Part shown: positions 2,520-62,667 of the stretch, piece after piece
Layout: every line of letters starts with the position of its first letter
How positions within the stretch are numbered: position 1 is the first letter of the stretch
From: Candidatus Chazhemtobacterium aquaticus
GTDB lineage: Bacteria > Patescibacteriota > Microgenomatia > UBA1400 > Chazhemtobacteraceae
NCBI RefSeq assembly: GCF_009936135.1
Contig: NZ_CP047901.1
Coordinates: 60,181-124,180, forward strand
Length of the DNA: 64,000 bases
Direction: 5' to 3'
Position numbers and translations under genes: made by a program
The notes under the pieces: generated by a model
What the model saw: the letters and a program-made list of their open reading frames with translations, nothing else
Database searches by the model: none
Told to the model about the DNA's origin: nothing

Positions 2520-3419
2520 CTACAACTCCAGCTTCCGCAAGAACTCCCGAAACTCACCATTAATATCTGGATGCTTCAGTCCAAACTCCACTACTGTCTT
2601 TAAATACTGCAGCTTATTCCCAGTATCATGAAACCTCCCTCCTTTTATCTCTACCGCCAACACTCTTTTTCCATCCTCCAACATTAAGCGTAATGCATCG
2701 TTGTAATACAACTCTCCACCCTCATCCATCTGCGCCAACGCCTCGTCCAAGTAATTAAATATGTCAGGTGTAAACAAAAAACTACTTACATTACCCAAAT
2801 CAGAAGGAGACTTGTCTTTTCCCGGCTTCTCAATAATCACCTCAGCATCAATTACCCCATCCTCAATCTCTCTTCCTCCCGCAAAACCCCACCGTTTATA
2901 CTCCTCATCTTTAGTCGCCCGAACCGCCGCCAAACAACTCACTCCATACTTTTCATAAGCCGCAATCAACTGCCGAAAATCACTTGGAGTCGCCTCAATG
3001 AAATCATCGCTCCATGTATATATAAATGGCTCATCTCCAACCAAATGCCGAACATTAAGCAAGGGCGTTCCGTTTCCATATGGCCCCTTTTGCCTAACGT
3101 ATGCAAAGTTTGCTAAATTCCCAATCGCTCTCACCTCATCTAACAAGTGCTTCTTACTCTCCCCACCCATCTTCAGGTTCTTAACCAAATCACTACTCGG
3201 AGCGTCGAAATGGTCCTCAATACTTCGCTTATGAAAACCAGTCACAATAATAATGTCCTTAATTCCTGCCTCAACCAAACTCTCAACCACAATCTGAATC
3301 ACCGGCTTATCTACAATCGGCAACATTTCCTTAGGCATTGCCTTTGTTTGTGGCAAAAACCTAGTCCCAAAACCGGCCGCTGGTATCACTGCTTTACGCA
3401 CTTTTTGCGCCATGTTCAC
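2520..3419 (-). CDS. galU: UTP--glucose-1-phosphate uridylyltransferase
   Basis: N-terminal KAVIPAAGFGTRFLPQTKAMPKEMLPIVDKPVIQ nucleotidyltransferase signature. Confidence 0.9.
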   Translation of the reverse strand: MNMAQKVRKAVIPAAGFGTRFLPQTKAMPKEMLPIVDKPVIQIVVESLVEAGIKDIIIVTGFHKRSIEDHFDAPSSDLVKNLKMGGESKKHLLDEVRAIGNLANFAYVRQKGPYGNGTPLLNVRHLVGDEPFIYTWSDDFIEATPSDFRQLIAAYEKYGVSCLAAVRATKDEEYKRWGFAGGREIEDGVIDAEVIIEKPGKDKSPSDLGNVSSFLFTPDIFNYLDEALAQMDEGGELYYNDALRLMLEDGKRVLAVEIKGGRFHDTGNKLQYLKTVVEFGLKHPDINGEFREFLRKLEL

Positions 3420-28592: not shown

Positions 28593-28666
28593 TAGCAGGG
28601 GCGAGGATCGAACTCGCGACCTTGGGTTTATGAATCCCATGCTCTAACCAACTGAGCTACCCTGCC
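28593..28666 (-). tRNA. tRNA with CAT anticodon (Met; could be initiator or lysidine-modified Ile2)
   Basis: Reverse complement folds as GGCAGGG-TA-GCTC-AGTTGGTTA-GAGC-A-TGGGA-TTCATAA-ACCCA-AGGTC-GCGAG-TTCGATC-CTCGC-CCCTGCT-A. 74 nt. CCA not encoded. G1-U72 wobble. One A-A mismatch at the base of the anticodon stem. Confidence 0.8.
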
Positions 28667-28821
28667 AGATCTACCTTATATATTCTATCATTCCATGGCT
28701 AAACCAGCCATCCAACCCCTCATTCTTCTCAATAAATTCTTACTCTTTCGCACATGAACTATGACTACCTATCCAACCAAGACCTTATCCATATCTCAAT
28801 TACCCCAAAATAACCCGAATT

Positions 28822-28850
28822 TGTCAATCCCAAGTTAGCCTTGTATAATA
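28822..28850 (+). promoter_or_regulatory. sigma70-like promoter (TTGTCA - 17 nt - TATAAT) upstream of the tmRNA candidate
   Basis: ttgtca at 28822-28827, a 17-nt spacer, and tataat at 28845-28850, about 30 nt upstream of the predicted mature RNA 5' end. Confidence 0.4.
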
Positions 28851-28878
28851 CACACAAGCTCATTTTATGTGCTTAACA

Positions 28879-29134
28879 TGCGGGCGGAAGGTCGGTATCT
28901 TGAGAGGCTCAAATGGGCCCTTTTGTGAGTAATCGCAATCGAAAACCTGGCTATATCGGTGAAACCCACGAAATAAGTGGGCAACCCCGAGGGAAGTCGT
29001 AATTGACCCCGTAGAGACTACACGCCGGGCTCCCCAATAAATAAGGGATGATGATATAGTCCGACACTCCAAGCAATTGGAGATAACCGTGCATAATCTC
29101 TCTTAACCGGGGTTCAACTCCCCGGGCCCGCAAC
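28879..29134 (+). ncRNA. ssrA: probable tmRNA (ssrA); structured RNA with tRNA-like 3' domain
   Basis: 3' end CCGGGG-TTCAACT-CCCCGG-GCCCGCA-A-CCA resembles the tmRNA T-arm, acceptor strand and encoded CCA (E. coli ssrA ends GGGTTCAACTCCC...CCACCA). 5' TGCGGGC at 28879-28885 pairs perfectly with GCCCGCA. Local G+C is higher than the surrounding intergenic DNA. No full tRNA cloverleaf is present. No G3-U70 pair or tag frame could be verified. Confidence 0.4.
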
Positions 29135-29627: not shown

Positions 29628-30500
29628 ATGGATCAAACCAATCCCTTTCGCTCTGCTCAAAACGAGTTCCAAAAAAGCCTCGAGTCTACAGGCAGGGCCA
29701 CTGCCACCATTTTAGCCTACACTAAAGATATCGAACAACTTCTCGATTTCGTGGCAAAAACCGGCAAAACTAGCCCCGAACAAGTAGATACACAGGACAT
29801 CAATGACTTCAAGGCCTACTTAGCCGATAAAAACTATACTGCTAAATCAATTTCCCGCAAAATTAACTCCATCAAATCTTTCTTTCGCTATCTTCAGTCT
29901 CAAAAAAAGATTGACTCAAACCCAGCCACGACCGTAACTCATCCCAAATATCAACTTAAGCCACCTCGAATTCTTACTAGAATCGAATATCGCGCACTTC
30001 GAGACGCTTGTCGCGATGATGTTCGTATCAGCGCTATTGTCGAACTTCTTCTTCAAACAGGTATGCGTATTGGTGAACTTGCCAATCTTGAATTAGAAGA
30101 TCTTGATCTAAACGAAGATAAAATCACTATCCGTGCCTACGAGTCCCACCCTTCCCGCACTATTCCCCTTAATTCCTCTGCCAAAGAAGCCCTCAAACTC
30201 TACCTCGAAGACCGCCCTAAAACCGATACAAAAAATGTCTTTGTCACCAAAACGGGTAATTCCTTTTTAGTTCGCAACATCAGGAGTAGTATTGACCGCT
30301 ACTTCCGCCTAGCCGGCATTGAAGACGCCAAAGTAAACGACCTTAGACATACTTTTATCGCCCACCAACTCACCTCAGGCACCCCTCTTGTTTATGTCAG
30401 CAAACTTGTCGGCCACAAACGTCTTTCTACTACCGAAAAATATCTCGAATTCATCAAAGAAAAAACCGCCAAAGACAAGCCAAAACTCGAGGAGCTTTAA
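29628..30500 (+). CDS. tyrosine site-specific recombinase, XerC/XerD family
   Basis: Catalytic residues in context: R in TGMRIGEL, H-x-x-R in LRHTFIAHQL, and H...Y in LVGHKRLSTTEKY. 290 aa, Xer-sized. Confidence 0.85.
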   Translation: MDQTNPFRSAQNEFQKSLESTGRATATILAYTKDIEQLLDFVAKTGKTSPEQVDTQDINDFKAYLADKNYTAKSISRKINSIKSFFRYLQSQKKIDSNPATTVTHPKYQLKPPRILTRIEYRALRDACRDDVRISAIVELLLQTGMRIGELANLELEDLDLNEDKITIRAYESHPSRTIPLNSSAKEALKLYLEDRPKTDTKNVFVTKTGNSFLVRNIRSSIDRYFRLAGIEDAKVNDLRHTFIAHQLTSGTPLVYVSKLVGHKRLSTTEKYLEFIKEKTAKDKPKLEEL

Positions 30501-56127: not shown

Positions 56128-56751
56128 CTATTCTGCCAACTCTGCTTCCACCGCTCGCAGTAAATCTCCAACTGCAGTCTGCTTACCGTTAACAAAAAAT
56201 GTCGGTGTCCCTCTCACTCCCAATCTCATAGCTTCCCCGTAATCATTCATCACTAGCTCCTTATGCCTTCCCTCTTCAAGTGACTCAACAAACATCTCCC
56301 GATCCAAGCCCAATTCTTCAGCATAATCAGATAGCTTAACCTCAATCTCTTTTTCTTCCGCCCATTCTCCTTGCCGTTCAAACAACAAGTCATGATACTC
56401 CCAAAACTTGCCTTGATCGTGTGCCGCTTCCGCTGCCTCAGCTGCAATCAAAGCATTCTTGTGAATACTTGACAGTGGCATATGTCTAAACACAAATCTC
56501 ACTCCCTCTCTATTCTGTACTTGTTTCACTAATCCCTGTGCCGCCTTACAAGCAGGACACTGAAAATCACTAAACTCCACCACCTCTACCTTAGCATCCT
56601 CCGCTCCCATTACCAACCTCTCCTCACCCGAAATCTCTTTGACCTCTCCACCCATCTGATCTCCAGTCATCCTACTCATCCCCAAGGCTACTACAATCAA
56701 CAGCAACAAACTTCCTCCTATCACTCCAAAAATCAACTTAGCATCGTTCAT
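56128..56751 (-). CDS. thioredoxin-fold DsbA-family thiol:disulfide oxidoreductase, membrane-anchored
   Basis: CxxC active site in EFSDFQCPACKAA. N-terminal TM helix. Confidence 0.8.
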   Translation of the reverse strand: MNDAKLIFGVIGGSLLLLIVVALGMSRMTGDQMGGEVKEISGEERLVMGAEDAKVEVVEFSDFQCPACKAAQGLVKQVQNREGVRFVFRHMPLSSIHKNALIAAEAAEAAHDQGKFWEYHDLLFERQGEWAEEKEIEVKLSDYAEELGLDREMFVESLEEGRHKELVMNDYGEAMRLGVRGTPTFFVNGKQTAVGDLLRAVEAELAE

Positions 56752-58422: not shown

Positions 58423-58557
58423 TTACGCCTTCCTACGGGGAGCCAATTGGAACAACGGATCCAATGCCGGTGTCTTCACCCTCAACCTGAACAATACGCC
58501 CGACAACTCTGGAAACAACAATATTGGCTTTCGTTGCGCCGTCTCCCCCTAAGTAAT
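58423..58557 (+). repeat. DGR template repeat (TR), 135 bp
   Basis: Matches the reverse complement of 60272-60406 at 127 of 135 positions. All 8 mismatches fall on TR adenines. TR carries AAC codons in the target reading frame. Confidence 0.9.
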
Positions 58558-58672
58558 CAAACCTGCGAGATCTCCAGATCATTGATCCACCCATCAATCA
58601 CTGGAGCCGGGCACCATCCAATTACCAGCCTAAGACTCGTCATCCACTTTAAGGAGACAGAGATAGTAAAAG

Positions 58673-58709
58673 AGTAACCAGTCTCGGGATTAATCAACGG
58701 TTACTCTTT
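58673..58709 (+). promoter_or_regulatory. perfect 9-bp hairpin in the TR-RT spacer (DGR RNA structural element candidate)
   Basis: agagtaacc - 19-nt loop - ggttactct, between the TR 3' end and the RT start codon. Confidence 0.4.
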
Positions 58710-58721
58710 TACACTTCTATC

Positions 58722-59855
58722 ATGTTTGACCGCATCATCTCTTTTAACAACCTGCTTTCCGCCTATTACAAAGCCAGAAGACACAAACGTTTCCAAAAAC
58801 CTCTCCAAATCTTCGAGTTTAATCTCGAAAAAAACCTCATCAACCTCCAAACCAATCTCGCCACCAATCAATACCGCCCCAGAAAATACCACCGCTTCAT
58901 CACCTTTGAACCCAAAAAACGTCAGATCTCAGCCCCTGTTTTTATCGACCGCATCCTCCATCACGCCATCATCACCGTTATTGAACCCATCTTTGAAAAC
59001 GTTTTCATTAACCACTCCTTCGCCTGCCGCAAGGGTAAGGGCACCCACTTTGGTATGCTCCAAGTCTCCCAAGTCTATCACCAGATCCGTCAGCATCACC
59101 CCCGCTTCTACTGCCTTAAATGCGACATCAAAAGCTATTTCGCCAGTATTAATCATCAGATTCTTCTCCGCCTGCTATCAAAACACATCTCCTGCCCCAA
59201 AACCATCAAATTACTCACCACTATCATCACCAGCTACCACGACACACCCGGCTGTGGCATCCCCATCGGCAATCTTACCTCGCAGCTATTCGCCAATATC
59301 TACCTCCACCCTCTCGACCTGTACTTAACCAAAACCCTTAAACTCAAAAACTACTTTCGTTACATGGATGACTTTCTTGTCATCTCTCCCGACAAAGAAT
59401 ATCTCCTTGCCCTCCGTCGTCAAATCAACACCTTTTTAACCACCAATCTCAAACTCACCCTCCACCCCAAGAAAAACAATATCTTTAGGGCTGATCGTGG
59501 CCTGGACTTCCTAGGCTATCTCATCAAACCCCATCAAACCACCATCAGAAAAAAGACCCTCCGCCGTTACAAAAAACGTCACAAAAAACGCCTCAAGAAA
59601 CTAAAAACCTTAAAACACCTCCTAAAAAACCACAACCAGCCCCAGCAACTCTCCCTCTTCGCTCCCCCACAAAATCTAACCGACCCGGATCTATCAAACC
59701 AAATTACCGCTCTCCAACAAAAACTTCGCTCCTCCCGTAATTCCTTCAAAGGCTTCCTCCGTTACTCCACCCACCAACGTCTATCTTCTGGTGGTGTAAC
59801 TATCAACAACATCACCATCCCCAACATCTTCCCCAAGAAACCCAACAAGCCCTAG
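58722..59855 (+). CDS. DGR-type reverse transcriptase
   Basis: RT motifs, including YMDD in FRYMDDFLVIS. DGR-specific IGxxxSQ motif (IPIGNLTSQLFANIYL) in place of the group II intron QG. 377 aa with no maturase or endonuclease domains. TR lies immediately upstream. Confidence 0.9.
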   Translation: MFDRIISFNNLLSAYYKARRHKRFQKPLQIFEFNLEKNLINLQTNLATNQYRPRKYHRFITFEPKKRQISAPVFIDRILHHAIITVIEPIFENVFINHSFACRKGKGTHFGMLQVSQVYHQIRQHHPRFYCLKCDIKSYFASINHQILLRLLSKHISCPKTIKLLTTIITSYHDTPGCGIPIGNLTSQLFANIYLHPLDLYLTKTLKLKNYFRYMDDFLVISPDKEYLLALRRQINTFLTTNLKLTLHPKKNNIFRADRGLDFLGYLIKPHQTTIRKKTLRRYKKRHKKRLKKLKTLKHLLKNHNQPQQLSLFAPPQNLTDPDLSNQITALQQKLRSSRNSFKGFLRYSTHQRLSSGGVTINNITIPNIFPKKPNKP

Positions 59856-60190
59856 AGCCTACTCACCCTCATCCACGCATTTAGCAATCTCCCAATCTCA
59901 TTTATTTTCTCCGCTACTACCCCGTATTTCTTAATCGACAAAAACCCTACATCCTTGGCTACTCTCACATATACCCGAAACAAATCAAGATTTACTGAAA
60001 TCTTCTTCTGTTCCGCTCTCCGATCAGGTTTACTGTTAGCAATAACCGTTAGTCTAATCATTTCCATATTAGTTTTTAGCAAAGCATTTGATAACAAAAA
60101 CCGTTGCGCTTTAGGAAACCTCGCCACCATCCGATGGGTATACAAGTACAGGTCATATATTTTCTGAAAGATTATCAGCTGATCAATCAT
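59852..60190 (-). CDS. avd: Avd-like accessory variability determinant (four-helix-bundle, TIGR02436-like)
   Basis: 112 aa from the internal Met, with GGGGGTGAG SD-like sequence 6 nt upstream. IYDLYLYTHRMVARFPKAQRF...L pattern is typical of Avd / 23S-IVS four-helix-bundle proteins. Directly downstream of the VR-bearing gene. Converges on the RT with a 4-nt overlap. Confidence 0.65.
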   Translation of the reverse strand: MIDQLIIFQKIYDLYLYTHRMVARFPKAQRFLLSNALLKTNMEMIRLTVIANSKPDRRAEQKKISVNLDLFRVYVRVAKDVGFLSIKKYGVVAEKINEIGRLLNAWMRVSRL

Positions 60191-60215: not shown

Positions 60216-60238
60216 GGCTCCGACTCAAGGTCGGAGCC
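60216..60238 (-). promoter_or_regulatory. perfect 9-bp hairpin (ggctccgac-tcaag-gtcggagcc) downstream of the VR; candidate DGR homing hairpin and/or transcript terminator
   Basis: Located 34 nt after the VR end, between the target stop and the avd start. No U-tract follows on the transcribed strand. Confidence 0.5.
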
Positions 60239-60271
60239 AGATAACAAGATTTTAAAAGATAGCTACGCCAA

Positions 60272-60406
60272 ATTACTTAGGGGGAGACGGCGCAACGAAA
60301 GCCAATATTGCTGCGCCCAGAGTTGCCGGGCGTATTGTTCAGGCTGAGGGTGAAGACACCGGCATTGGAACCGTTGTTCCAATTGGCCCCCCGTAGGAAG
60401 GCGTAA
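60272..60406 (-). repeat. DGR variable repeat (VR), 135 bp, at the 3' end of the target gene
   Basis: See TR. Encodes ...FLRGANWNNGSNAGVFTLSLNNTPGNSGRSNIGFRCAVSP*. Differences from TR give N->S, D->G, N->R and N->S, plus 3 silent changes. Confidence 0.9.
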
Positions 60407-62667
60407 TCAATATTACTCGACCCTCCCTGATAATATCTACCCACCCTCTTATTCAAATCCCAACTACTATCACTCGGTTTCAGTACGTCATAACTTAAAA
60501 CACCATAATCACTCACACTCGACCAATCAACCCAACTTGTACCCCCTCCCACCGGCTTATTAGGCCCCCTCACCACATCATCCGTCCATTCCCATACATT
60601 ACCCGCCAGGTCCCAGATCACCTCGCCATTAGATAAATAATGAGTTCGTCTTTGGGTGGCACCATTGCCACAGGTTGGATCAACATCTTTAGTGACCGTG
60701 CCATAGCAGCCTTGGGAATCGTCAGTCGAAGCTTGAAGCGCCAGAGCCGGGCCGTTATCATTATGACCCGCCACCAAATACTGACTTCCCGGACTATTAC
60801 CACACCCTGTCCCGTTTAAAGCACACCAGTTACTCCCCAACCTCTCCAGATTTCTCGCTATCGTCATCCACTCGTTATTAGTCACCAAATGCCACCCCTG
60901 CGTCTGGCAATAAGTCCTGGCATCTACCCCCGATCCGCCAGCATTCTGAGCAATTCTGGCAATCGGTGCCCCTTGAGGCGTTGACACTACATCTCCTCCC
61001 ATATCCTCTATACATCTACACCCCGACAAAATATTTCCCCACGTATCATAACCAGTGTTGCATGACGCATAAGCACCGCTTGCCGTATCCCCCACCCCGT
61101 CACCATCAGCATCACACTTAGCCTGATACTTCATCACACAAAAATCACTCGTTCCATATAGCGGATCACCTGGTACATGAACAAAACCACTAGGACACGC
61201 CACCTGAGCATTAGCAGGCTCTAAAGACTGTGTTTTACCAAACTTAACCGCCGCACCAATTACATCCACATACACCTCGAACAAAGTACGATCATAAGCA
61301 TAAATCAGCACATCATCCATCTTACCGTTAAAGTAATTAGGCGTCGCCCCTGCTCGACCAACAAACACCGACCCCCCCGTTACCGACCATAAAGACAAAG
61401 CCGGCGATGACACCAGTCGGCCGTCTACATAAAAACTGGCATTGACCCCATCATATGACACCGCCACATTAGTCCACTCTCCCGCCGATATACCAGCCCC
61501 GCTGCTCGTCACCACCGACCCTCCCACTGGCCCGAAGCTCAACTCCCCTCCGCTCGTCATCTGGAAGGTATAACCGTTCGTGTGAGGCTGCGACACAATC
61601 GCATAATTACCCAAGGAAGACACATAAACCCAAGCCGAGATCGTCATCGCCCCGCCTAACTGAAACCGTCCGTGATTACCCAGATCAACATAGTCATCAC
61701 TTCCGTCAAAAAGTAAGGCATAATTGTCATTACCCGCTACCCACTGGCTGTTATCACTCGGGAAATTCACCAATGCCGCTCTGGTATAGTTTTCCAGCCT
61801 GTTCATCGTCTGCAAACCAGAACCATCATCAAAACCTAATCTCACTACCGGCCTGCCTCTTTCCATCGCATAAGCCAACGACCCTTCATCTCTCGTCCCT
61901 GAGAATACTCTTACTTCATCAATCGAACCGTCCAGATAACCAGTATAACTGCCAGCCCCCGTTTTTGTTACACCTAAATAAAAATCAGCCGCCGTATCAC
62001 TCAGTGCCGTCCCCACCGACGAAACACTCCCTTCTCTAACCCCATTCACATACAAATATATGGTACCCGGACTGGTTGCGTTATAGTAACCCTGCAACAA
62101 GTACCAAACATTGGGCAGTATCTGCGTCGTTCCTGTTGCTGTCTTAATCGCCGCCGCTGTCCCGTCAGGCGACACCTGGAACTTGGGCCATACCCTGCCG
62201 TCTGCATCAGCCTGAATTATCAACCGATAACTCCTTATATCAAGCGTCTCATCCCACTTGGCCACCACCGTCTGAAACGCACTCTCAGATGCTGATACCG
62301 TATCAAACTTCACCCACGCCTCTACCGAAAAACTCCCTGTCTGGGAAAATACAGCCGTGTCCAGAGCTATCCCGTAATCATCAACACCATCAAACTCAGC
62401 TTTTCTCCCATATTTGGCTTCCGCCCCAATCCCCGTCTTCGTCCCCGTCACCCCACTCCCTGTCGTTGTCAACGTCAAGTCATTAACCCCCACCCGATCC
62501 TTAATCAAAGTCGTTCCATCCCCCTGAACGCTCTCAAAATCGTAATAAACCACCGGCTCGTCCCACACACTCCAATCAGCCCACACTACCCCCGCCCAGC
62601 CCAAAAACCACCAAAAAACCAGCAAACATCCCAACACCTTCCCGATCCTATTTTTCCCACATTCCAT
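60277..62667 (-). CDS. DGR target (variable) protein: signal peptide, two LamG/concanavalin-like domains, C-terminal FGE-sulfatase/C-type-lectin-fold domain carrying the VR
   Basis: N-terminal hydrophobic MECGKNRIGKVLGCLLVFWWFLGWAGVVWA. LamG-like blocks (FSVEAWVKFD..., MTISAWVYVS...). FGE hallmark GNVWEWT, ending in GFRCAVSP with the VR in the last 43 codons. Confidence 0.85.
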   Translation of the reverse strand: MECGKNRIGKVLGCLLVFWWFLGWAGVVWADWSVWDEPVVYYDFESVQGDGTTLIKDRVGVNDLTLTTTGSGVTGTKTGIGAEAKYGRKAEFDGVDDYGIALDTAVFSQTGSFSVEAWVKFDTVSASESAFQTVVAKWDETLDIRSYRLIIQADADGRVWPKFQVSPDGTAAAIKTATGTTQILPNVWYLLQGYYNATSPGTIYLYVNGVREGSVSSVGTALSDTAADFYLGVTKTGAGSYTGYLDGSIDEVRVFSGTRDEGSLAYAMERGRPVVRLGFDDGSGLQTMNRLENYTRAALVNFPSDNSQWVAGNDNYALLFDGSDDYVDLGNHGRFQLGGAMTISAWVYVSSLGNYAIVSQPHTNGYTFQMTSGGELSFGPVGGSVVTSSGAGISAGEWTNVAVSYDGVNASFYVDGRLVSSPALSLWSVTGGSVFVGRAGATPNYFNGKMDDVLIYAYDRTLFEVYVDVIGAAVKFGKTQSLEPANAQVACPSGFVHVPGDPLYGTSDFCVMKYQAKCDADGDGVGDTASGAYASCNTGYDTWGNILSGCRCIEDMGGDVVSTPQGAPIARIAQNAGGSGVDARTYCQTQGWHLVTNNEWMTIARNLERLGSNWCALNGTGCGNSPGSQYLVAGHNDNGPALALQASTDDSQGCYGTVTKDVDPTCGNGATQRRTHYLSNGEVIWDLAGNVWEWTDDVVRGPNKPVGGGTSWVDWSSVSDYGVLSYDVLKPSDSSWDLNKRVGRYYQGGSSNIDYAFLRGANWNNGSNAGVFTLSLNNTPGNSGRSNIGFRCAVSP

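Follow-up and report, generated by a model that had tools for sequence, protein, structure and literature searches.

The locus

In the chromosome of Candidatus Chazhemtobacterium aquaticus, a 64-kb stretch (64,000 nucleotides; hereafter the window, whose own numbering is used throughout) contains a gene for a 796-residue protein whose 3′ end recurs, in inverted orientation, beside a reverse transcriptase (RT) gene. We consider it very likely that a chromosomal diversity-generating retroelement (DGR) has the product of this gene as its single variable protein, and that this product is a secreted, diversifiable lectin-type binding protein. DGRs are well known in kind; the presence of one in this organism has previously gone unremarked. 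The RT, Avd, the template repeat (TR) and a structured spacer are all present and intact (Table 1). The target protein is identical to QHO63097.1 / WP_161931501.1, which comes from an 801,504-bp contig of Ca. Chazhemtobacterium aquaticus and carries only the database label "LamG domain-containing protein".

The element is defined by an inverted repeat of 135 nt with 94% identity between its two copies. The copies differ at 8 positions, and all 8 mismatches fall on adenines of the plus-strand copy, an outcome with a chance probability of (35/135)^8, or about 2e-5. This identifies the plus-strand copy as the TR and the copy at the 3′ end of the open reading frame (ORF) as the variable repeat (VR). 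From TR to VR the changes are N775S, D781G, N785R and N786S, plus three silent codons. An earlier sequence-only reading of this DNA had spoken of four variable residues, which is the number that differs in the assembled allele; however, the TR adenines allow 16 codons to be diversified. Eleven of these are AAY codons in the TR, read in the VR frame (762, 764, 765, 768, 775, 777, 778, 782, 785, 786 and 787), and the five others, each with four-way recoding, are Y755, T773, T779, D781 and I788. At none of the 16 can adenine mutation reach a stop codon, and together they define a theoretical repertoire of about 9e15 proteins. The 3′ end of the repeat is free of adenine and GC-rich (GGCTTTCGTTGCGCCGTCTCCCCC), with TR and VR identical through TAAGTAAT and diverging after it. 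No second VR or TR was found in the 64-kb window.

The RT gene lies directly 3′ of the TR and is convergent with avd, the 3′ ends of the two genes overlapping by 4 nt. Its product keeps the DGR-typical GIPIGNLTSQLFANIY segment and has the motifs IGxxxSQ and YMDD. Among solved structures its closest relative is PDB 8ub7 (328 aa), which we take to be the Bordetella phage DGR enzyme bRT, and other classes of RT are much more distant (E 2.6e-50, versus about 1e-20 for group II intron RTs). Avd scores 89 bits against the equivalog NF033474 (DivGenRetAVD), for which the cut-off is 80. A mechanical list of ORFs starts this gene at 60247, but its true start is most likely the ATG at 60190, after GGGGGTGAG, since this gives a product of 112 aa, in agreement with the 111-112 aa of homologous avd genes. 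The arrangement differs from that of the DGR (bRT-Avd) found in Bordetella phage BPP-1 in that the TR-RT unit is inverted relative to target and avd.

The DGR RNA probably has its structured 3′ part in the spacer between TR and RT. Across 9 aligned locus entries, 15 of the 17 predicted pairs in its helices are retained through two-sided, compensatory changes, and the spacer includes two invariant blocks, ATTAC and one like GGATAAAGAAAG. It has no Rfam family: a scan of the cassette at permissive thresholds returned only sub-threshold chance matches.

Table 1. Features of the DGR locus (window coordinates) and positions of the VR-flank motif in related loci (coordinates of each locus).
Feature	Position	Strand	Remarks
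Target (variable protein) gene	60277..62667	-	796 aa; ORF confirmed at exactly these positions
Signal-peptide-like Sec leader	62578..62667	-	Residues 1-30; hydropathy, homolog comparison, AlphaFold2 helix 4-23
LamG / concanavalin-like jelly roll 1	61864..62562	-	Residues ~36-268; Laminin_G_3, AlphaFold2 strands 40-256, Foldseek
LamG jelly roll 2	61258..61854	-	Residues ~272-470; Pfam best stretch 321-461, AlphaFold2, Foldseek
FGE-subtype C-type-lectin (CLec) domain	60280..61233	-	Residues 479-796; Cys-rich inserts (12 Cys)
VR	60272..60406	-	Codons 755-796, stop codon and 5 nt
VR-specific motif CGTAGCTATCT	60257..60267	-	4 nt past the end of TR/VR homology; absent beside TR
GC-rich hairpin GGCTCCGAC-CTTGA-GTCGGAGCC	60216..60238	-	9-bp stem; between target stop and avd start
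avd	59852..60190	-	112 aa; bAvd PF22296, E 8.9e-21; PHROG 'Avd protein of DGR'
RT	58722..59855	+	377 aa; RVT_1; phrog_1423, E 6.5e-106
TR-RT spacer, presumed 3′ part of DGR RNA	58558..58721	+	Two helices kept across loci
TR	58423..58557	+	35 A in 135 nt; 11 AAY codons in VR frame
VR-flank motif, L001	2713-2723		
VR-flank motif, L002	3756-3766		
VR-flank motif, L004	6304-6314		
VR-flank motif, L005	6324-6334		
VR-flank motif, L006	6325-6335		
VR-flank motif, L008	6241-6251		
VR-flank motif, L010	4823-4833		

Architecture of the target protein

The target protein consists of a leader, two LamG jelly-roll domains matched by both family profile and fold, and a C-terminal C-type lectin (CLec) fold of the formylglycine-generating enzyme (FGE) subtype, likewise matched by sequence and fold. 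Pfam-A detects two stretches of Laminin_G_3 (PF13385; E 4.9e-44, 150.6 bits). Its match to FGE-sulfatase (PF03781) covers residues 582-793, scores 27.3 bits against a gathering score of 23.3, and spans profile positions 100-254 only. The motifs GNVWEWT and GFRCAVSP occupy residues 689-695 and 789-796. An AlphaFold2 model of the CLec domain (residues 479-796, with 26 homologs as input) has a mean pLDDT of 83.5 and a pTM of 0.88. The model of the whole protein (pLDDT 84.3, pTM 0.85) places an N-terminal helix at residues 4-23, jelly rolls at about 40-266 and 275-470, and the CLec domain after them; its top Foldseek matches are laminin LG4-5 and neurexin LNS pairs.

The sequence-only reading had proposed this same order of leader, LamG, LamG and FGE/CLec fold, and Pfam, AlphaFold2 and Foldseek agree with it; the two families that it named for a domain search are both matched. 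It had also placed the VR in the last 43 codons of the fold, and the repeat indeed covers 42 codons and the stop. Its comparison with TvpA-like variable proteins stands in part, as the VR does lie at the C-terminus of an FGE-type CLec fold, but the nearest known structure is TaqVP rather than TvpA.

TaqVP, the variable protein of a Thermus aquaticus DGR (PDB 5VF4), is 381 aa long and matches the C-terminal domain only, with nothing aligned to the tandem LamG half. Relative to it, the target protein, from a bacterium of the Candidate Phyla Radiation (CPR), has in addition a predicted Sec leader and Cys-rich inserts (12 Cys). TvpA (Treponema denticola variable protein 1, PDB 2Y3C) is a more distant match, again to the C-terminal domain only. 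The trimeric Mtd, the major tropism determinant of Bordetella phage BPP-1 (PDB 1YU0), is a phage tail-fibre protein, whereas the target gene is chromosomal and encodes a predicted Sec leader and LamG domains. From formylglycine-generating enzyme and pFGE (PDB 1Y1E, 1Y4J; PF03781) the protein differs in missing the catalytic Cys pair, the corresponding region being hypervariable, and it therefore does not belong to that family as an enzyme. In an alignment to the bacterial FGE profile, the catalytic cysteines of CHDSYC fall on N764 and A769. This indicates that the CLec domain is a non-catalytic scaffold in which the former active-site region has become the VR.

The homolog family and its diversification

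A search that covered 5.8 billion proteins returned about 45 full-length homologs with 45-92% identity and the same architecture. Where their sources are named, nearly all are CPR (Levybacteria, Roizmanbacteria, Pacebacteria, Parcubacteria and "Patescibacteria group"), and loci retrieved later add Shapirobacteria. A TR with mostly adenine-specific mismatches accompanies the gene in 10 of 10 full-length family loci inspected (L001-L008, L010 and the window); in example loci the adenine-specific fraction is 15/15, 14/14, 18/18 and 13/15. For L001-L003, gene tables confirm the presence of RT and avd and show three gene orders: that of the window, target-avd with TR-RT inverted; target-avd-TR-RT; and target-RT-avd-TR.

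Among 40 full-length homologs, the entropy at AAY-encoded positions is 3.11 bits, compared with 1.12 bits in the rest of the protein and 0.84 bits in the VR framework (Mann-Whitney, p = 1e-8). The most telling comparison is with the closest alleles. Set against the window protein, P0096 has changes at 11 of the 16 predicted codons and at 8 of 753 other residues; for allele P0094 the counts are 12 of 16 and 6 of 620. That alleles about 99% identical elsewhere differ at 11-12 of 16 codons indicates recent activity of the element in this lineage, on a within-species timescale. A sister cluster from Roizmanbacteria (84 members, at least 90% identity) concentrates 27 of its 35 variable columns in the last 45 residues. 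Within a predicted strand, the invariant F772, L774 and L776 alternate with the variable 773, 775 and 777, and this alternation, together with fold homology to TaqVP, TvpA and Mtd, points to variable residues that are exposed on the surface.

Clustering at 50% identity divides the full architecture into two clusters. The CLec module (40-52% identity) also ends many other proteins of 368-3761 aa with differing N-termini, and one of these, in L015, is a DGR target followed by avd and TR. Such a distribution of one module over varied N-termini is the modular pattern expected of DGR targets. The module occurs outside DGRs as well, as in L016, where the paralog P0154 has no TR or RT within 4 kb. 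This paralog (L016 4001-5107; 368 aa, 45% identity) is followed by a PT-HINT/intein-like gene.

Some family members depart from a simple VR. There are VR indels relative to the TR in L004, L007 and L008, and frameshifted C-termini in P0007, P0008, P0023, P0033 and P0035; these may represent genuine but non-canonical DGR events, or pseudogenes, or faults in the assembly of a polymorphic VR.

Strand skew

The headline of the genome paper is an extreme G/C disparity between the strands (PMC7143001), and the plus strand of the window has a GC skew of about -0.5 throughout, plus-strand genes such as the RT included. Read on the sense strand, minus-strand genes have skews of +0.36 to +0.77 and the plus-strand RT has -0.54. 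The body of the target gene follows the first pattern (+0.38 to +0.40), but its VR has a skew of -0.16, close to the -0.25 of the TR on the opposite, C-rich strand. A skew at the level of the VR is reached by 0.15% of 135-nt segments in the 64 kb, in four regions. The simplest reading is that the TR has followed the mutational bias of the strand on which it lies, while the VR has been repeatedly overwritten from the TR. In relatives with unskewed genomes no contrast between VR and gene body is seen. The extreme strand disparity acts as a natural control, in which the skew of the VR is independent evidence for one-way flow from TR to VR.

We considered whether the inverted TR-RT unit is tied to strongly skewed genomes and rejected this, because relatives with the same arrangement have skews of about 0.05-0.1. 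Elsewhere in the window, a group I catalytic intron (RF00028, 79.2 bits) at 28900-29083 (+) coincides with an island of reversed skew at 28805-29093; a tRNA (28593-28666, -) and an ORF (29628-30500, +) lie beside it.

Sequences flanking the variable repeat

Immediately 3′ of the VR is an 11-mer, CGTAGMTATCT, that occurs exactly once per locus in 8 related locus entries, which represent 7 distinct contigs as L009 duplicates L002. Its distance from the end of TR/VR homology is 2-6 nt across loci. In this DGR lineage each VR has the motif as a neighbour and the TRs do not. L007 has the variant GTAGCTATC, and in L015, with its other target architecture, CGTAGATAT stands beside the VR (about 3352-3360) and no copy stands beside the TR. 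The motif is followed by one or two additional ATCT repeats and then by a GC-rich hairpin. Hairpins occupy the equivalent position in L001, L004, L005, L007, L008 and L010, often of a GCGAAGC type. In most loci about 35-45 nt separate the VR from the hairpin downstream of it, which is conserved in position and not in sequence. A cruciform is known from the Bordetella element (summarised in PMC5758913), and by analogy the motif and hairpin could be a VR-specific homing signal and cruciform. They could, in other words, tell the retrohoming machinery which copy is the recipient.

Export and location

The leader (residues 1-30) has, by heuristic criteria, the layout of a cleaved type I (Sec) signal peptide: K5, R7 and K10, a 19-residue hydrophobic core at 11-29, then V-W-A and D31. 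Among the 27 homologs scored, namely those with the WxVW mature-start motif, 26 repeat this layout although their leader sequences are divergent. In the homologs V or A is usual at position -3, A or S occupies position -1, and the mature protein has a conserved start, D/N-W-S-V-W-E-T-P. The presence of 12 cysteines in the CLec domain, of which four do not vary within the family, is consistent with an extracytoplasmic location. The sequence-only reading had described the protein as secreted, with a hydrophobic leader, and had seen in it a surface or extracellular binding protein whose ligand-binding face is diversified; the recurring leader pattern and the cysteines point to export, and the DGR context and export pattern agree with the wider claim, both at the level of prediction.

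At 56128-56751 (-), 3.5 kb from the gene for the target and its 12-Cys CLec domain, is a gene for a DsbA-like thiol:disulfide oxidoreductase whose N-terminus has a hydrophobic segment; the two may be functionally linked. TvpA is a lipoprotein; unlike it, the target protein has no lipobox. We rejected a lipoprotein because there is no [LVI][ASTVI][GAS]C at the end of the core, and the only N-terminal cysteines (C3, C14) lie ahead of the core and lack conservation among homologs.

Alternative explanations

Several points weigh against a secreted protein that is still being diversified by a DGR of its own. Only 8 of the 31 coding TR adenines are changed in the assembled allele, and asparagine is kept at 7 of the 11 AAY codons, although the assembly is a metagenome consensus, such that this allele says little about present activity in the exact population. 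After the predicted cleavage site we find no anchor, whether a transmembrane (TM) or second hydrophobic segment, a lipobox, or a sortase/C-terminal sorting motif, and the C-terminus of the protein is the VR itself. Finally, the hairpin could equally well be just a terminator and the motif a promoter or operator of avd. In every motif-bearing locus with a known downstream gene, avd follows the target, an arrangement that suits both readings. A scan for promoter and terminator consensus sequences gave counts no higher than in shuffled sequence, with the hairpin at 60238-60216 as the sole notable item.

The sparse changes in the assembled allele would suit a decaying, fossil DGR whose TR/VR differences are old and whose protein is now a fixed LamG/lectin adhesin, and the frameshifted C-termini and VR indels among the relatives also speak for this. 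However, the frameshifts may just as well have arisen in the assembly of a polymorphic VR. Purifying or covarying selection acts on the RT, Avd, TR and spacer helices, all of which are intact, closely related alleles have been recoded at most of the variable codons, and the composition of the VR tracks that of the TR on the other strand despite the extreme strand bias. We therefore regard a fossil element as unlikely.

Still less probable is that the protein is a receptor-binding protein of a phage or prophage, comparable to Mtd, with the DGR belonging to a mobile virus. Housekeeping genes flank the cassette (NifU, cysteine desulfurase, FNR-like reductase, ferredoxin, the DsbA-like oxidoreductase and RpiB), and related loci also lie among cellular genes (NAD synthase, aspartyl-tRNA synthetase, UvrB). 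A blastn search of the cassette against 50,697 phage records gave no DNA match, and the predicted Sec leader is conserved across the family. CPR DGRs, moreover, form a cellular clade (PMC8144416).

A catalytic formylglycine-generating or sulfoxide-synthase-type enzyme, with the LamG domains as substrate-binding modules and the repeat as an incidental feature, is the least credible explanation, in that one catalytic cysteine aligns to a diversified AAC codon (N764) and the other to A769, the putative active-site region coincides exactly with the hypervariable region, the Pfam match is limited to part of the profile, and in structure the protein is closest to a DGR variable protein.

A model for the element

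A DGR dedicated to a secreted lectin-type protein is thus the explanation we retain. Hypothetically, and in line with established DGR biology, the TR-spacer RNA would be reverse-transcribed by RT-Avd with misincorporation opposite adenines. The resulting cDNA would replace the VR, the replacement being bounded on the 3′ side by the A-free, GC-rich end of the repeat, and the VR-specific flank (the CGTAGCTATCT motif and hairpin) would plausibly mark the VR as recipient. Up to 16 codons would in this way be recoded on the ligand-binding face of the C-terminal FGE-type CLec fold. Following export by way of the predicted cleavable Sec leader, the pair of LamG jelly rolls would be displayed outside the cell together with the variable tip of the lectin.

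Candidate ligands include surface structures of host or partner cells, particles, polysaccharides or biomass glycans, and phage. The inference we favor is that the protein attaches the cell to a host or partner, on the grounds of the life as symbiont, parasite or scavenger predicted for the organism (PMC7143001), and of the general picture of cellular DGR targets, most of which combine binding domains with a signal peptide or TM segment (PMC8144416). The sequence-only reading had likewise offered attachment to a host or to particles as an inference. Without an anchor the protein may be a released, antibody-like soluble lectin; alternatively, the LamG pair may hold it on the cell, and an ultra-small symbiont may use it to track the changing glycans of its host surface. 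We put forward as a tentative and somewhat doubtful conjunction that both of these further readings hold, that is, that the motif and hairpin beside the VR are the target-site recognition signal of this lineage and that the unanchored protein is a released or LamG-held lectin.

Relation to known systems and significance

A DGR lineage restricted to CPR/Patescibacteria was reportedly described by Paul and co-workers in 2017. In the literature that we searched, whose coverage does not extend to Paul et al. 2017, we found no description of the family that combines a signal peptide, two LamG domains and a CLec domain. The supplements of Roux et al. 2021, who define a CPR-restricted DGR clade 2 (PMC8144416), contain no Laminin or PF13385 strings, and in Wu et al. 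2018 Laminin_G_3 is named solely for CotH targets that are linked to phage and about 2000 aa long. The element described here resembles the CPR DGR lineage (PMC8144416) in being a cellular DGR in a CPR genome whose target has an N-terminal signal peptide, in our case a predicted one, and binding domains. Ca. Chazhemtobacterium aquaticus itself belongs to the Microgenomates (CPR) and comes from a deep thermal aquifer; type IV pili and a non-Gram-negative envelope are predicted for it, and the genome paper makes no mention of reverse transcriptase, retroelements or LamG (PMC7143001).

Our findings leave knowledge of how DGRs work unchanged. What they add is that a closed, complete CPR genome gains a clearly defined hypervariable surface or secreted protein that went unnoticed in the published analysis. 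The family is compact and conserved well among CPR lineages, with 45-92% identity and a confident structural model, and so offers a practical entry for the expression of a CPR DGR target and a search for its ligand. In an organism inferred to be a symbiont, parasite or scavenger, this protein is the most obvious candidate for recognition of a partner.

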